Source: an uncultured Gemmatimonadaceae bacterium
GTDB lineage: Bacteria; Gemmatimonadota; Gemmatimonadetes; Gemmatimonadales; Gemmatimonadaceae
NCBI GenBank assembly: GCA_963817955.1
Contig: CAWFQK010000006.1
Coordinates: 32,001-96,000, forward strand
Length of the DNA stretch: 64,000 nt
Direction: 5' to 3'
This document shows positions 31,646-38,922 of this stretch, piece after piece. The notes beneath the pieces are model-generated. The model was not told the origin of the DNA. It made no database searches and worked only from the letters and a program-made list of their open reading frames with translations. The position numbers were made by a program, and so were the translations under genes. The number at the start of each line of letters is the position of its first letter. Position 1 is the first letter of the stretch.

Positions 31646-33093
31646 CGGCCGGGTCTCGCGTCCGGTGCCGGTGTCACGGGCATGAAGGTGGTGTCGCCGC
31701 GCGCGTCGAGCACGCCGGCGTCATGGGCGAGCTGGGCCAGGGCCGTGCGCCACTGCCAGCGCGCATCGACCGCTTGGGCGCTGGCGGTCGCGAGCGCGCT
31801 CTGCGCCACGAGGAGATCGACGATACTGCCGACCCCTTCGCGGTAGCGCTCGCGTGCCACCTGCTCCGATTGCGTGGCGCTCGCCAGAAGGTCCCGCGAC
31901 GTCCGCACCTGATCGGTGGCTGTCCGCAGCGTGTAGTACGCGTTGAATACCTGCTGCACGATCTGCTGCCGCGTCAACTCGGTACGGGCGAGCGCCGCCT
32001 GATACTGCTCCGACGCCGACGCAACGTCATACTGTTGCGACTGACCGCTGAACACCGGAATGGACACCCCGAGGTTCAGGGCGTACGTGCGACCGGCAAA
32101 CGTGGAGACATTCGATCCATTCGACCCGCCCACGCCGGTGAGCGCCAGCGCCGGAAGCATGGCCGATCGCGCCACGCGAATCTGAGACGACGCCGCCATG
32201 GCCTGCGCTCGCGCCGTGGCCAGCTCGGGGCGGTTCTGCACGGCCAGGTTGATCAGCGAATCCACCGACTGCGCCACGAAGTACACGGAATCGCCGGCGG
32301 GAATATTGGGAATGTCTACCGGCGTATTGGCGGGAACGCCCATCGCCACCGCGAGTCCGCCACGGGTGATTTGCAGCGCGCCCTCCAACGACTCCAGCTG
32401 GAGCTCCGCCTGCGAGCGCGCAGTCTGTGCCTGCAACACATCGGCGATCGTCGCCAGTCCGACGCGGTGCCGTTCGTTCGCTGCATCCAATGCGGCCGCC
32501 GCCAACTGCACCGAGCTTTGCTGCGCATCGCGTTGCGCCCGGGTCGACAGATAGCTGAACGCCGCCGCCTCCACCTGCAGAATGGTGTTCTGGACGGTCG
32601 CGTTGTGCGTCAGATCGGCGGCCACCGCGGTCTGCCGAGCGACGTCGATCATCCCCGAGCGTCCTCCGAAATCCAGCACGGTGTACGACAGGCTGAGCGA
32701 CGGTCCGTAGACCATGCGCCCCACCGGCGGACGCCCCAGGGTGGCGAGCGATGTTTGCTGCGTCCCCGTGAGGCCGGCGGTCAGCGTCGGCAGATATTTG
32801 CCTTCGCTCGAGCCATACACATCGGCAGCCGCGCGCGCCTGCGACCAGGACATCCGCGTCGCCGGGCTATTGCGCAACGCGAGGTCGACGATTTGTGGCA
32901 GCGTGAGTTGCCGTGCCGCGCTCACCGACAGATGCACGGCACCGGTGTCGCGCGCCGGCTGAGGCTTCACCGTCTCTCCCTGCAGCCACGAGCTCCCCGG
33001 ACTGGACGGCGTCGGAGCGACGCCGTCGATGTCCGGCGGATGCGTCGCACATGCGGCGCACAGTACTGCGGCCGCAATAGCCCAACGTGTCAC
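31642..33093 (-). CDS. TolC family outer membrane efflux protein (lipoprotein)
   Basis: Lipobox-like CAAC, AL.NSP, VGLAT.ADVLQA, YREGVGS.VDLL.AQ repeats. Confidence 0.9.
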   Translation of the reverse strand: MTRWAIAAAVLCAACATHPPDIDGVAPTPSSPGSSWLQGETVKPQPARDTGAVHLSVSAARQLTLPQIVDLALRNSPATRMSWSQARAAADVYGSSEGKYLPTLTAGLTGTQQTSLATLGRPPVGRMVYGPSLSLSYTVLDFGGRSGMIDVARQTAVAADLTHNATVQNTILQVEAAAFSYLSTRAQRDAQQSSVQLAAAALDAANERHRVGLATIADVLQAQTARSQAELQLESLEGALQITRGGLAVAMGVPANTPVDIPNIPAGDSVYFVAQSVDSLINLAVQNRPELATARAQAMAASSQIRVARSAMLPALALTGVGGSNGSNVSTFAGRTYALNLGVSIPVFSGQSQQYDVASASEQYQAALARTELTRQQIVQQVFNAYYTLRTATDQVRTSRDLLASATQSEQVARERYREGVGSIVDLLVAQSALATASAQAVDARWQWRTALAQLAHDAGVLDARGDTTFMPVTPAPDARPGR

Positions 33094-34781: not shown

Positions 34782-35176
34782 TACCGCGAACCTCGCACGC
34801 GCGCACCCGGTGCGACCTCGGTCGTCACCAGCAAGTCGAGCAGATTCTGAGACGACATACGATTCGTGGCGGCGCCGAGTAGGGCGATGCGCGGCGCCGG
34901 GAACACGTCCGGGTTCCGCCGAGTGGACGCGACGAAGAGACAGAGTCCTGCGGCGAGAGCAGTCAGGGCGCCACATGGGATCAACAGGCCGGCCCAACGC
35001 TCCGCATAGTCCCAGATAGTTTGGCCAGCCGCGCGCGCGCCAAGCTCGGACGCGGCGGCGGCGCAGATACGCGCGCTCAGATCGGTCAGATCACGGAGAC
35101 CAATAGAAGCCGCGGCGCCAGACTGGTGCAGCAAATCGGCGAGCGCATTGTCGCGCGCGGGATCGTGACGCCTCAT
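34781..35176 (-). CDS. Putative anti-sigma factor (single TM)
   Basis: Small single-TM protein overlapping the ECF sigma stop (ATGA). Confidence 0.55.
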   Translation of the reverse strand: MRRHDPARDNALADLLHQSGAAASIGLRDLTDLSARICAAAASELGARAAGQTIWDYAERWAGLLIPCGALTALAAGLCLFVASTRRNPDVFPAPRIALLGAATNRMSSQNLLDLLVTTEVAPGARVRGSR

Positions 35177-35823
35177 GCGCTCACGCCGCGAAGGTGCACC
35201 AGCGCATCGCGGAGCTGGCGCCGGCCAACGTGGAGGTGCCAGCGGATGGTTGCGGGCGATGAATCCAAGAACTCGGCGATCTCATTAATGGAGAAACCGT
35301 CGAGCTCGAATAGCTCCACCACCATTCGCCGGCGGGGGGGCAGGACGGCGACGGCCCGTCGAACGCGATCGAACAGGTCCGACCGCTCGACGCGAGCCGA
35401 AGGCAATTCGCCGCCATCGGTGAACTGATCCGAGAGGGGTTCGGTAGAGCGAAGGGACCGGGACGCGGCCAGGTCGATACCGCGATTGACGATGATACGC
35501 GACAGCCACGGCCAGAAGGGGCGATTGGCGTCGAAGTCGCCGATATGTCGCAATGCTGACAGAAAGGCGTCCTGGACGAGGTCCTCGGCGTCCTGTTTCT
35601 GTCGGAGAAGGCGCGTGGCCAGTGCCAGAGCGCGCGGAAGATGCTGCCCGACCAACGTTCCGAACGCCGAGCTGTCTCCTTCACGCACCGCCTGTATGAG
35701 ACGCTGCTCCGCGGCCGCCTCGTCCGTGAGTAGGACGGGTCGGGAGAATTCGCGTGTTGACGCGACGGTTGGGGCAGTTGGGGCGGCCAGGGGGCCGCTC
35801 TGGAGAGGGCGTTTCATTTCCAT
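35173..35823 (-). CDS. ECF RNA polymerase sigma-70 factor
   Basis: GD..AF..LV, DAEDLVQDAF, WL.RI..N, LP..RR, GFS..EIA; start uncertain. Confidence 0.92.
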   Translation of the reverse strand: MEMKRPLQSGPLAAPTAPTVASTREFSRPVLLTDEAAAEQRLIQAVREGDSSAFGTLVGQHLPRALALATRLLRQKQDAEDLVQDAFLSALRHIGDFDANRPFWPWLSRIIVNRGIDLAASRSLRSTEPLSDQFTDGGELPSARVERSDLFDRVRRAVAVLPPRRRMVVELFELDGFSINEIAEFLDSSPATIRWHLHVGRRQLRDALVHLRGVSA

Positions 35824-35894
35824 AGATAGGTACGGCCACCCTCGCCCCGGCGTTTGGTCCACCGGTATTGCGCTCGCACCGGAAGGGAAGCAAA

Positions 35895-35920
35895 GCGGCG
35901 CCCCGAACGAGAGGCGCCGC
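35895..35920 (-). terminator. GC-rich hairpin, possible terminator at the left edge of the three-gene cassette
   Basis: GCGGCGCC-N10-GGCGCCGC followed by TTTGCTT on the minus strand. Confidence 0.45.
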
Positions 35921-36131
35921 CACGTTCATTCTATTGACGTTACGCGTCCTGGGGACGGACTGTTGTGGGACACGGGACCGGCGTCGCTCATTTCGTTGTC
36001 GTGTCAGCTACTGGCAGGCATGCCGACTGCACGGTGTGCTGGCCTCGAACAGGTCGCGACGTGCGATCGGGTCAGTCTCCATACTATGGCGAGAGGTCCC
36101 ATGCGTAGACATCTCTTCTTTCAGACGCTGG

Positions 36132-36966
36132 CTATTGCGCATCTGGTGGCGGTTCGCCGACGCCCCGATTGCTTAGCGAGTCGAGGTCGAGCCTGCGGGT
36201 GTTCCGAACATCATGCAACGTGAACGCATCCTCGGAGACCACCATCACATGTTTCAGTTTGACGCCTTCAATTCCGTCAAACACCTTCTTGAATCCCGGA
36301 ACAAAGTCGTCTTCCAACGGATGTCGGACCAGCTCCTTGCCGAACTCCTCCACCCGCATCGTGACCCAGACAGAGGGAATGACGTACGACTCGTTCGCAG
36401 ACAATTCGTCATCGCGAGGAGTCACAAGAAGGTAGACGCCGGTAAAATGAGCTCCCCATTTTTTGTACAGCCTCTCGAGCCTTTCGGATGATTCGTCGAG
36501 GCGGCGTACGAACTCGTTGGGAAATGAATCGCGCCTGTAACGACGCGCCAACCACGAACCAACCAGGCGGCACTGGTCGCGCGAGAGGGGAGTCGACGAG
36601 TCGGGGCCCGCCGCCTCCAAGATTCGTCGGTCTATTTCTCGGCGCTCAAGTGCGGATAGCTCCACCGCTGTGGCTTCGTTGGCGGCAACCAGGTTTAGAT
36701 GCAGTCTCCGCAGACTCTTGCCGTGAAGAAGACTACCGTTCGCTTCGGCAATTATGGTCCCGCGGATAATTTCGACGCGGGGCTCGACCACATAGTTCTT
36801 GTGCGCAACATCGCAATCCTGACTGACGACGATTGCTCGGTGGGCCTCTGGCGAGAACTCTAGACCCGTCGCTTCACTGAGTGACGCAAATAGGGAGGGT
36901 GGTACAGACGGAACCTTGCCGCCATCCAAGTTTGTTCACCGCCGAGGCGTCTTGGTTCGTCGACAC
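36132..36966 (-). CDS. Conserved-looking hypothetical protein with WRQGS and VVSQDCD motifs; apparent +1 frameshift near 36907
   Basis: ORF 36132..36929 carries VVSQDCD, EP.VE, GK..R.L, WLARRY.R.SFP..F..RL; upstream GTG (36966) frame reads MSTNQDASAVNKLGWRQGSV, 17 bp after the previous stop. Confidence 0.7.
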
Positions 36967-36983
36967 GACTTAACCGCTTTCGT

Positions 36984-37730
36984 TCAGTCAAGCGATTCGT
37001 CATTCAAGGCATCGATACGCAGTTGCCCAATGTCATCTGGCGCCGAGGATATGCCGTACTCCTTCATGACGCTCGCGACAGACCGGTAACCGGAACGCTG
37101 CCTGCGCGACTCAGTGGCGCTGAGCGAGTCGCTGATAACGGACAGCGCCCTTTGTACGCGGCCGATATCAATTTCTGGCTCCATCAGGAGAGATACTAGC
37201 GACTCTCCGTCCTCCAGCGGTGCAATGAGAAGCTTGCCAACCGGCCCCGAGTGTCGACGCGACCAGTCGGTAGCGATGTCGTAGAGCTGTTTCAGTCTTT
37301 GAAGCTGGACGCGACGTGGCGACGCCCCTCTTAGCCATGAATAGATGGCCGGACGGCCGACTTGCATCGCCTCCGCGAGTTGCGAGACGTTCAGCGACAA
37401 CGCCCGACGAACAGCCCTCAATCGGTCTGTGACCGAAACGGCTAGCTCATCGTTCCCACCAGACGTCGCGGGCACGTCATGAACGGTTGTTGCACGCGCG
37501 TCGACGACATAGGGGCTTGTGCTCGGAAAGGTTGAGACGTAGGCCGGAGCAGTGAACCCGCCGGTGCCGACCGTGAACAGCAGTCCGAGCAGGACCATGA
37601 GGTCTGCTGGCTGATAGCGCCCCAAGAACGAGGTTGTCGCCGTGGGATATCCGGAGTTCAACGACGAAGCAATGGCTTCGGAATACCCAGCTTCGAGCAA
37701 ACCAGAAGCAGGTTCACCAATCATTTCCAT
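36984..37730 (-). CDS. XRE-type HTH protein with N-terminal hydrophobic VGTGG segment
   Basis: LRAVRRALSLNVSQLAEAMQVGRPAIYSWLRG is an HTH pattern; overlaps the upstream gene by 10 bp. Confidence 0.75.
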   Translation of the reverse strand: MEMIGEPASGLLEAGYSEAIASSLNSGYPTATTSFLGRYQPADLMVLLGLLFTVGTGGFTAPAYVSTFPSTSPYVVDARATTVHDVPATSGGNDELAVSVTDRLRAVRRALSLNVSQLAEAMQVGRPAIYSWLRGASPRRVQLQRLKQLYDIATDWSRRHSGPVGKLLIAPLEDGESLVSLLMEPEIDIGRVQRALSVISDSLSATESRRQRSGYRSVASVMKEYGISSAPDDIGQLRIDALNDESLD

Positions 37731-38533
37731 CTTTGCTCCACCGCGTACGGTTGCACTGCAAGGCGGAACGCCTCGCTCGCGACTTTGTGTAGCGAATCCA
37801 GCCTGTCGACTAGAGTTTTCGGTTCGAATTCCATATCCCCGGCCGCGTAATGGTCGAAGTCCAAGAGCGCGACCGGTTCATCTGGTCGAAGCTGCACTTC
37901 GTAGTGAAGCGGCGATGGAGTGAGGTCCGGCGGAAGGAATTGTCCGGTGTTGAGTTGAGTGCTTCTAACGGTCAGCAGACTATCGGCGAGCTGTGCGACA
38001 GAATGAGACAGCGCAAAAGCTTTAGTAACGCCCGCGGTCTGGAGTTCACCGAAGGGAAATCCAACTAACCCGGGCTTCAGGTACTGGCCGAATGATTCGC
38101 CGGGCTCCATCCGCACCAAATCGACGTAACGAATTCCCACCCGCTCGACGAGTCTGACGTCTATCTCGCTCGCCACGGCCTCTAAAACGGGACTCAGGAT
38201 TGAGCTAAACCATTCAAAGGTCTTGTAGTGGCTCGTATGTAGGACTACAAACTGTGGCGTAAGCATCACGCCGGTCATTCGGTCTCGAGACAAAAAGTCC
38301 CACCGCTCCACTGAGTCAATTCGCGGAGTTACGCCCGGCCCCAAGACAATGTTTTGGATTTCGCTCTTCTCGAACCGCGGGAACCCAAAGTCCAAATCCT
38401 TCAACTTTTCCTGAAGGGCTGGCACAGACCGAGAAATTGTGAGCACAGGTGAGAACCGCACCTGCGCCAAGACATGTACTAGAGGAGCTTTGTTCAGCTT
38501 CCTTGAGTCTGTCTGGCTTTCTGGCTGATTCAT
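37721..38533 (-). CDS. TIGR04255-like family protein
   Basis: L.KAPLVHVLAQVRFSP, Y.TF..F, RVGIRYVD, LLDFDHY, L..LH....EAF recalled as the TIGR04255 pattern. Confidence 0.78.
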   Translation of the reverse strand: MNQPESQTDSRKLNKAPLVHVLAQVRFSPVLTISRSVPALQEKLKDLDFGFPRFEKSEIQNIVLGPGVTPRIDSVERWDFLSRDRMTGVMLTPQFVVLHTSHYKTFEWFSSILSPVLEAVASEIDVRLVERVGIRYVDLVRMEPGESFGQYLKPGLVGFPFGELQTAGVTKAFALSHSVAQLADSLLTVRSTQLNTGQFLPPDLTPSPLHYEVQLRPDEPVALLDFDHYAAGDMEFEPKTLVDRLDSLHKVASEAFRLAVQPYAVEQRWK

Positions 38534-38568
38534 ACACTAAAACATACACATAAACATACACCTGGCAA
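38531..38568 (-). promoter_or_regulatory. Putative sigma70 promoter (TTGCCA-N16-TATGTT, leaderless) overlaid by three GTGTATG direct repeats
   Basis: Minus strand TTGCCA (38568-38563), TG-extended TATGTT (38546-38541), ATG 7 nt downstream; CATACAC at 38531, 38543, 38555. Confidence 0.6.
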
Positions 38569-38717
38569 TACGCAATGCGACGCTCCCGGTTTCAGTTGTG
38601 AATCTGGCCAAAAAAAACGCACCGCTTACCAATAGAACGGCGATCCCATCGGTGGGAGGGGTAAGTCGAACAATTCGGACTAGCGCTCTCGTCTAAACAC
38701 AAAAACCGGCACAAACA

Positions 38718-38750
38718 GAACGGCGCCCGAACACGAGTCGGGCGCCGTTC
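38718..38750 (-). terminator. Rho-independent terminator downstream of the tRNA locus
   Basis: Perfect 13-bp stem GAACGGCGCCCGA/TCGGGCGCCGTTC, 7-nt loop, T-rich tail on the minus strand. Confidence 0.7.
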
Positions 38751-38788
38751 ATCGTCTATCTCGTTGTGGCACTTAAAGCTTTCTTCAA

Positions 38789-38830
38789 TGCCCGAGGACG
38801 GAATCGAACCGCTGACACGCGGACTTTCAG
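38789..38830 (-). pseudogene. 3' half of a tRNA-Phe(GAA) (pseudo-tRNA / att-like remnant)
   Basis: Minus strand CTGAAAGTCCGCGTGTCAGCGGTTCGATTCCGTCCTCGGGCA: anticodon loop, T-arm and 3' acceptor strand; no D-arm or 5' acceptor. Confidence 0.7.
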
Positions 38831-38850
38831 ATCGGATGTCGACGATTCAG

Positions 38851-38922
38851 AGGTGCGGGCGAGAATCGAACTCGCGAATAGCGGTTTTGCAGACCGCTGC
38901 CTTACCACTTGGCTACCGCACC
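38851..38922 (-). tRNA. tRNA-Cys (GCA)
   Basis: GGTGCGG TA GCCAAGTGGTAAGGC A GCGGT CTGCAAA ACCGC TATT CGCGAGTTCGATTCTCGC CCGCACC T; complete cloverleaf, CCA not encoded. Confidence 0.95.

Follow-up and report, generated by a model that had tools for sequence, protein, structure and literature searches.

We describe here a three-gene cassette in a 64,000-nucleotide stretch of DNA (hereafter the window; positions 32,001 to 96,000 of contig CAWFQK010000006.1, forward strand, assembly GCA_963817955.1) from an uncultured Gemmatimonadaceae bacterium. The genes are named g1, g2 and g3 after their order and are referred to together as the triad (Table 1). g1 encodes a protein of the TIGR04255 family, g2 a protein with a probable XRE-type helix-turn-helix (HTH), and g3 a two-domain protein whose N-terminal domain is predicted to adopt the MazF/CcdB fold. 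A reading of the sequence alone (hereafter the original prediction) had seen in these tightly packed, co-directional genes a candidate tripartite toxin-antitoxin (TA) or defence system. The coordinates agree with the packing: g1 and g2 overlap by 10 bp (37721-37730), and 17 bp (36967-36983) separate the stop codon of g2 from the GTG start codon of g3.

Table 1 Features of the triad locus and of its borders, in window coordinates
Feature	Position	Strand	Description
g1	37721-38533	minus	TIGR04255-family protein, 270 amino acids (aa); tandem TBP-like (helix-grip) duplication predicted
g2	36984-37730	minus	XRE-type HTH protein, 248 aa; HTH at about residues 99-156
g3	36132-36966	minus	MazF/CcdB-fold N-domain and alpha/beta C-domain (predicted); +1 frameshift at 36903-36909
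tRNA-Cys(GCA)	38850-38922	minus	ARAGORN; Rfam 70.4 bits; insert boundary
tRNA-Phe 3' half (anticodon loop to acceptor end)	38796-38841	minus	att-like remnant, head of insert
GC hairpin, perfect 13-bp stem, T-rich tail	38718-38750	minus	terminator-like; folding
Three tandem GTGTATG repeats, 12-bp spacing	38531-38561	minus	putative g2 operator
Islet (window-specific inserted segment)	35947-38847	none	congener homology breaks; GC dip
GC hairpin upstream of ECF sigma gene	35895-35920	minus	core genome, outside cassette
Extracytoplasmic function (ECF) sigma gene	35173-35862	minus	downstream of g3, same strand

The cassette lies in a segment that is specific to the window. Homology with congeners ends at 38848, at the 3' end of tRNA-Cys, and restarts from 35946 downward. 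Because congeners share DNA only outside those points, the window-specific piece corresponds to the islet of Table 1, an insert of 2.9 kb. As the original prediction had noted, the cassette is AT-richer than its surroundings, with a GC content of 0.50-0.59 over 36000-38800 as compared to 0.62-0.69 in the flanks. The two similar GC hairpins thought to bracket it are both stable (region 35885-35930, -25.6 kcal/mol, z -3.98; region 38708-38760, -32 kcal/mol, z -7.0) and are alike over 16 nt at 81%, with a patchy longer alignment. However, the hairpin next to the ECF sigma gene is core sequence and not an end of the insert, because the stretch 35887-35946 is conserved at the cassette-less site of three congeners (G009, G021 and G006).

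In the window, g3 is frameshifted. Its longest open reading frame (ORF; 36132-36929) opens at a TTG; the gene actually starts in a different frame, at GTG 36966. Homologues of g3 run GWRQGSVLPPSLF unbroken in the alignment and read GWRQGSV-L/M-PPSLF without interruption. In the window, the frame encoding GWRQGSV stops at GTC (36909-36907) and the frame encoding PPSLF...AIVVSQDCD begins at 36902. Four bases (36906-36903) stand where the homologues carry a single codon; hence the window g3 has one extra base. The WRQGSV and AIVVSQDCD motifs pointed out by the original prediction are thus both present, but in separate reading frames, and the frameshift itself is indeed found in the assembly, with the GWRQGSV and PPSLF frames offset by one base. 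The source genome is a 9-contig assembly, 94% complete. Four public soil runs gave short contigs of depth 2-3 over parts of 36730-37400, with the region 36903-36933 uncovered, and the frameshift may be either a true mutation or an assembly error. Since the putative effector gene is frameshifted, this copy of the operon may be disarmed. Other decayed-looking copies were observed, with a shortened g3 at two loci (L007 and L015) and a stop codon inside g1 at a third (L046).

Recurrence and genomic settings of the triad

The conservation of the triad was followed at 18 genome loci anchored on g3 and distributed among Cyanobacteria, Fibrobacteria, Verrucomicrobiota, Myxococcota, Planctomycetota, Chloroflexota and Gammaproteobacteria. 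Phmmer searches with the window proteins alone recovered the three genes in the same order and on the same strand at 15 of these loci. Profiles, some rows of which derive from those same 18 loci, recovered them at all 18. The intergenic gaps range from -10 to +22 nt in most cases. In addition, the triad is complete in 5/5 viral contigs and in 6/6 annotated plasmid or phage records. A second set was anchored on g1, with 80 loci kept out of 331 metagenome relatives; 15 of these are too short to judge, and g1-g2-g3 was found at 61 of the 80 (61/65 judgeable). The four remaining judgeable loci have no match to the g2 profile, and three of them encode at that place an HTH protein of about 250 aa with the HTH at about residues 100-150. 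The co-occurrence of the three genes in other genomes, on which the original prediction depended, is therefore established (18/18 genome loci, 61/65 judgeable metagenome loci). Because it recurs across phyla in one order and orientation, the triad reflects more than chance, and g1-g2-g3 almost certainly form a real conserved operon.

One metagenome locus (L124, 1984-2790) has a 268-aa ORF after g1 and a divergent HTH protein; this ORF has no g3-profile or Pfam match and could be either a strongly diverged g3 or a different effector.

Several triads are surrounded by defence genes. At two loci (L003 and L009), PADLOC models detected PglW before the triad (full length, E 0) and PglX after it; with PglW and PglX on both sides, the triad is therefore located inside a BREX type 2 locus. 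In L014, left out of the PADLOC scan, the triad and the flanking ORFs have sizes equal to those of L009. The neighbours in L002 are a type IIG restriction-modification (RM) enzyme, a TIR-like effector, PDC-M30 and PDC-S02, and those in L004 are PDC-S05/RhuM, AbiEii and a UvrD-like helicase. At other loci, Pfam matches identified Gp49/HigB-like, zeta and Phd/PIN proteins, as well as an integrase with an excisionase-like HTH. The annotated records contain a type I RM system; a DGQHR protein accompanied by a methylase and a cI repressor; and an integrase together with a PIN protein.

Triads were also found on nine plasmid records, three of them conjugative, and on prophage-like (viral) contigs. 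Within the genus of the window, g3 occurs in 2 of 25 genomes, and in none of 16 other genomes of the order. This sporadic presence supports the horizontal acquisition suggested by the original prediction. Overall, the triad is very probably a mobile accessory element.

Two relatives carry another gene in the third place. In a Gemmatimonadota genome (G284; L065, 4432-7558), the gene for a 678-aa protein that includes a g1-type TIGR04255 domain precedes a 179-aa ORF and the gene for a RES protein (Pfam RES, 1.1e-11), the reading frames overlapping by 4 bp; the locus may be an analogue of the triad that has a known toxin. In one other relative, a DUF3800 protein comes after g2. DUF3800 is the effector of retron type VII (PMC7736814).

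The insertion site

The tRNA genes reported next to the cassette were both recovered: the tRNA-Cys upstream of it by ARAGORN and Rfam, and the half tRNA-Phe by its match with the 3' half of the G009 tRNA-Phe (94% over 35 nt, blastn). The same half matches the distal repeat of the G009 island (89% over 46 nt, blastn). Rfam did not report it at E<=1, and it was recovered only via the congener comparison. It occurs once within the window, and the one intact tRNA-Phe of this genome maps to a different contig.

At the same site, G009, G021 and G006 carry other DNA, about 7, 19 and 24 kb long, between tRNA-Cys and the shared flank. The congener DNA located between the same flanks in L033, L034 and L035 is unrelated to the window insert. 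In this genus, the DNA on the 3' side of tRNA-Cys is thus a hypervariable hotspot for insertions. A 44-nt direct repeat of the tRNA-Cys 3' half is positioned about 5 kb from the tRNA in G021; a repeat of that half was sought at the far end of the window insert and not found.

The second carrier of the genus, G009, has an intact triad at a different location. The g1 proteins of the window and of P0170, taken as the G009 copy, are 57% identical, and blastn detected no DNA-level match between the two copies beyond the tRNA pieces. The G009 triad begins about 0.9 kb after an intact tRNA-Phe, and an exact repeat of the tRNA 3' half, of about 47 nt, is found about 260 nt past g3. This pair of repeats is the signature of an integrase-mediated insertion. 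The G009 islet (L022, 5858-9615) is 3.7 kb long. Beyond the triad it has only about 0.9 kb of DNA that is non-coding or made of small ORFs, and no integrase lies inside; it looks like a cis-mobilisable element. In the window copy, a single tRNA-Phe half stands beside a different tRNA, the tRNA-Cys.

The original prediction had taken the tRNA adjacency as part of the picture. It proved to be local to the genus: any tRNA is present in the flanks of only 3 of 60 other loci, and a tRNA-Phe in none. Adjacency to a tRNA was therefore rejected as a property of the system.

The three proteins and the repeats before g1

The identification of g1 as a TIGR04255 protein is borne out by a full-length match to the NCBIfam model 'sporadTIGR04255' (model positions 1-251 of 252, 131.1 bits for a cut-off of 30, E 5.8e-38; 130.8 bits in a genome-wide search). 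The AlphaFold2 model of g1 (pLDDT, the predicted local confidence, 93.8) has a tandem TBP-like duplication, and the conserved Arg, Tyr, Asp and His are placed on its strands. All fold matches remain below Z 8, the noise guide of the tool: a McsB/arginine kinase domain (7.6), AdoMetDC, TBP, RepD and RnlA (5.2). On these grounds g1 was placed in no enzyme class. Nothing in these matches supports the role of chaperone or sensor that had been proposed for g1. The ESM Atlas returned nothing useful for this protein (0.76).

The TIGR04255 family is broader than the triad and is present in 49 of 401 genomes of the phylum. Among 29 further TIGR04255 loci of the phylum, 16 belong to the g1 subfamily, with g2 next in 15 of them. 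The other 13 stand in different contexts, such as downstream of a type I HsdR or of a DNA methylase. Four genes outside the triad subfamily give examples: in L055 the gene follows a type I R subunit, in L058 a DNA methylase, and in L059 it adjoins an HTH gene; in these three loci and in L061, small ORFs without any family come next. Conflict systems in general may use members of the wider TIGR04255 family as an accessory. A literature search on TIGR04255, with supplementary tables outside it, found no paper that contains the term.

g2 aligns with Pfam HTH_3 over residues 104-156, just under the cut-off (22.7 bits vs 23, E 9.9e-5), and with five other HTH models at lower scores. It also matches a PHROG transcriptional repressor (1.6e-6). 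Conservation is concentrated in the HTH and the C-terminal helices, and the first ~95 residues are variable. The HTH of the original prediction is thus conserved, but the hydrophobic VGTGG segment that was added to it lies in the variable region and is restricted to close relatives. A hydrophobic stretch ending in FTVGTGG, at about residues 55-75, is common to P0222, P0223 and G009; a faint GTG[GS] echo is seen in a few others, and the segment is absent from most of the family.

Upstream of the window g1, three GTGTATG repeats are spaced by 12 bp (38561-38531), the last one including the g1 ATG. G009 has the same arrangement with TGTATC, without other DNA similarity to the window. A promoter-like TTGCCA-16-TATGTT is found at 38568-38541, and the repeats overlap its -10 hexamer. 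This sigma-70-like promoter would start transcription a few bases from the g1 ATG, so that a leaderless or near-leaderless mRNA is predicted. Loci of other phyla have, by contrast, a Shine-Dalgarno sequence after the repeats.

A pattern, TGT[ACT][AT][GA]-N6-TGT[ACT][AT][GA], was defined on the first set of loci and then applied to metagenome and viral loci fetched later and held out. In the first set, it occurs in 25 of 44 g1 upstream windows (22/40 without four re-fetched duplicates), and all 27 matches in 1.095 Mb, both strands, are inside such windows. In the held-out set, it occurs in 61 of 76 distinct windows, which contain 65 of the 75 matches in 847 kb, with a position peak at -26/-27 from the g1 start and TGTAAA as the commonest half-site. 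The half-site also changes with the recognition helix of g2: VGRPA goes with TGTATG/C, VSRPT or VERPT with TGTAAA/G, and VQRQT with TGTCAG, and the SRRSVHFW group has no such motif. Because independent changes are few, this co-variation is suggestive and not a proof. On this comparative evidence, g2 probably binds the tandem repeats, and the simplest reading is that its binding would repress the operon.

The g3 family is large, with 2511 representatives at E<=1e-3 and 957 at E<=1e-30, counted at 50% identity. The protein has about 277 aa and two domains in the predicted model of the closest intact homologue (P0002, pLDDT 93.3). The N-domain (P0002 residues 14-147) has the MazF/Kid/CcdB fold in this model. 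The best 24 Foldseek matches are all MazF, with probabilities of 0.97-1.00 and E values of 4.6e-3 and weaker. VIA-align superimposes the domain on MazF with a Z of 9.1 (root-mean-square deviation 3.3, 111/115 residues), and gives 8.5 for Kid, 8.1 for CcdB and 7.5 for CptN; the alignments to MazF, Kid and CcdB span 95-112 residues of chains that are 95-118 long. The predicted structure thus points to a MazF/CcdB-type SH3-like barrel with a C-terminal helix. The PemK/MazF-like barrel suspected by the original prediction holds at the level of the fold but not as a sequence family. Indeed, Pfam PemK (PF02452) matched neither the window g3 ORF at E<=1 nor any of 103 family members at E<=0.1, no Pfam family recurs among these 103 members, and NCBIfam and PADLOC gave no g3 match.

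The invariant or nearly invariant residues of the g3 family are one Cys (in SQDCD or SHDCD), one Glu, one Tyr and several Arg. The C-domain (residues 148-260) is a small alpha/beta domain with generic matches only, such as the C-terminal domain of CzrB (Z 6.2) and minimal nucleotidyltransferases (Z 5.9). It was not called a nucleotidyltransferase, since no pattern like the signature of these enzymes was seen in the g3 alignments. No meaningful match came from searching PDB sequences with the profiles of g3 and g1 (best, polybromo at 0.022, and an unrelated match at 0.65). For g3, the ESM Atlas returned only unnamed hypothetical clusters (first three of 30 at 0.96-0.97), with a recognition value of 1727 that is too low for high scores to count. 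The window's own genome has no PemK/MazF gene at E<=1e-10, and 32 of 60 other sampled genomes of the order have one.

Proposed working and alternatives

We propose that the triad is a widespread, mobile, autoregulated tripartite TA or abortive-infection/defence module, a reading to which we give a probability of about 0.5. In this model, the g2 HTH would bind the repeats before g1 and repress the operon, and g2 would also restrain g3 by direct binding. g3 would be the effector: its MazF/CcdB-fold domain is joined to a small alpha/beta domain, it has invariant Cys, Glu, Tyr and Arg residues of its own, and its target is probably a nucleic acid or a molecule that bears a nucleotide. Candidate chemistries are RNA cleavage in a MazF-like groove with other catalytic residues, CcdB-like poisoning of a partner, and an activity linked to the invariant Cys. 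g1, with its tandem TBP-like fold and its conserved Arg/Tyr/Asp/His patch, would be the component on the input side, which senses or modifies something and thereby frees g3.

A complex of g2 with g3 was predicted for the G009 proteins with a score of 0.35, as compared to 0.00 for the best of three controls; the runs agree on at least 33% of contacts and the partner pLDDT is at least 60. In the calibration, the same mark was reached by 116 of 157 solved complexes and by 2 of 215 mismatched pairs. A score of 0.60 or less was obtained for only 18 of the passing solved complexes and for both passing mismatches; hence the pass at 0.35 is weak. By this calibration, such a pass would be more often wrong than right unless the complex was likely beforehand.

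Several observations weigh against the proposed module. Within 6 kb of the triad, no defence or mobile gene could be recognised at about half of the 18 genome loci, and the defence neighbours were counted without random control loci and do not demonstrate an enrichment. Some loci hold g1-g2 without g3. The RES and DUF3800 variants are single cases, and a stop codon interrupts g1 at the DUF3800 locus. The role of g1 is a guess, because all its fold matches are below Z 8. The fixed distance between the repeats and the g1 start would also fit an RNA-level element. As regards g3, hhalign with 23 PemK domains drawn from genomes of the same order gave a probability of 10.7% over 18 columns, in the wrong region. 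The PemK alignment has one invariant Arg and one nearly invariant Thr, which we take to be the MazF catalytic residues (the Arg before strand 2 and the Thr/Ser of a PLTS-type motif). In the alignments, no counterpart of either position is seen in g3, with no conserved Arg before the IVxSQDCD strand. MazF-fold domains also act as non-toxic binding modules, so that the fold alone is no proof of a nuclease or a poison. Toxicity and a role in defence are inferred.

A more ambitious version of the defence module is tentative and, in our view, rather improbable as a whole. It would make the triad a new widespread anti-phage or abortive-infection system, in which g1, an infection sensor or modifying enzyme, frees a new class of two-domain MazF-fold effector from the XRE repressor, and in which g1-g2 is a portable control unit that can also drive other effectors, such as RES and DUF3800. 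In this version, g1 has a tandem TBP-like fold with an Arg-rich conserved face, g3 would use its invariant Cys/Glu/Arg/Tyr site, and the repressor would read a TGTAAA direct-repeat operator that spans phyla.

The g1-g2 pair could also be a sensor-regulator unit for downstream cargo. Control would then be purely transcriptional, with g1 modifying or titrating g2 when a signal arrives and no neutralisation of g3 by the g2 protein. g1-g2 is indeed the more constant pair, since at least 64 of the 65 metagenome loci that can be judged have a g2-type HTH protein after g1, and some g1-g2 loci have another gene or none in the third place. The conserved operator-like element before g1 and the weak g2-g3 complex prediction (0.35) are in line with this view. 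A precedent is CapK/CapS, presented in PMC13373217 as a two-protein regulator upstream of varied immune operons. However, all 61 metagenome loci where g2 was found and there was room to judge also carry g3, so that the cargo is far less variable than for known regulator pairs. In addition, the three genes are translationally coupled, and g1 and g2 are unrelated to CapK and CapS, a GHKL kinase and a STAS protein according to PMC13373217. We consider a purely transcriptional control unlikely.

Less probable still is a housekeeping role in mobile elements, namely the maintenance, exclusion or mobilisation of integrase-less islets, and not a cell-killing defence. It would account for the G009 islet, where perfect tRNA-Phe half repeats surround the triad alone, without integrase, as well as for the tRNA-Phe half of the window copy and the triads on plasmids and prophage-like contigs; a rolling-circle Rep is also among the fold matches of g1 (Z 6.5). 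However, the tRNA association is rare outside the genus (3/60 loci, never tRNA-Phe), and the triad is also located inside chromosomal BREX and RM loci, where repeats were not noted. Moreover, Pfam, NCBIfam and PADLOC scans of the three proteins detected no recombinase, relaxase or partition motif. Finally, it is very improbable that g3 is a MazF-fold anti-sigma or partner-binding protein like CalpT that regulates the downstream ECF sigma factor: the sigma gene follows g3 on the same strand, and L005 and L015 also have sigma-70-type genes no more than about 5 kb away, but the window sigma gene and its upstream hairpin are core flank kept in relatives without the cassette, a sigma gene is nearby in only 2 of 18 other genome loci, and CalpT is not among the fold matches listed, which is no proof of its absence.

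The proposed TA or defence module does not appear under an existing name in the resources that were searched. In PADLOC-DB v2.0.0 (2023, with later systems outside it), g1 and g3 match no family at E<=1, and g2 has weak matches to RmrA (0.0045) and mad1 (0.027). None of Pfam, NCBIfam (for g3) and PADLOC v2 names the operon, later catalogues being outside the search. RefSeq product names are 'TIGR04255 family protein' for g1, 'helix-turn-helix ...', as for regulators, or 'hypothetical' for g2, and 'hypothetical protein' for g3, with no name for the operon. A literature search found no paper with any of six RefSeq accessions of orthologues, and one for a MazF-like/HTH three-gene defence operon found no description of it among the papers listed, with supplementary tables and later catalogues outside. 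The operon may have an earlier candidate label in such tables or catalogues.

If the module is real, it would give a first functional context to TIGR04255 and to the g3 family, two large families without a characterised member, and would add a tripartite module to the TA and defence repertoire. It would also supply a regulatory part made of a repressor and a simple direct-repeat operator with 12-bp spacing, conserved from cyanobacteria to proteobacteria. The operon is of interest as a widespread link between two uncharacterised families, and the hypothesis is directly testable because orthologues are carried by plasmids and prophage-like DNA of cultured bacteria.

Among known systems, the fold of the g3 N-domain recalls MazF, PemK (Kid) and CcdB of type II TA systems and ToxN/CptN of type III. 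Like toxin genes, g3 comes after the gene of a small DNA-binding protein. It differs from MazF and PemK in carrying an additional alpha/beta domain and a separate set of invariant residues (Cys/Glu/Arg/Tyr), and it has no sequence match to these toxins. The partner of MazF is a MazE-type antitoxin, whereas that of g3 would be an XRE HTH protein, and a third gene is obligatory in the triad. The tripartite TA systems TAC (toxin-antitoxin-chaperone), omega-epsilon-zeta, HipBST and CapK-CapS-VapC resemble the triad as three-gene operons with a DNA-binding component and a putative toxin, located on mobile DNA and in defence islands. However, none of the three triad proteins belongs to the families of these systems, and g1 is a TIGR04255 protein, neither a SecB-like chaperone nor a kinase. 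As regards Xre-RES TA systems, the 179-aa ORF and the RES gene of L065 hold the positions of g2 and g3, in overlapping frames. Unlike an Xre antitoxin, this ORF has no detectable HTH or similarity to g2, the case is a single one, and the g1 domain is part of the 678-aa protein.

The gene set in the third place also differs in L068 (3699-5673, genome G263), where g1-g2 are followed by an AAA_21/AAA_15 ATPase and a DUF4276 protein, a pair that we take to be AbiL-like. With a PD-(D/E)XK nuclease gene upstream, L068 looks like a small defence island.

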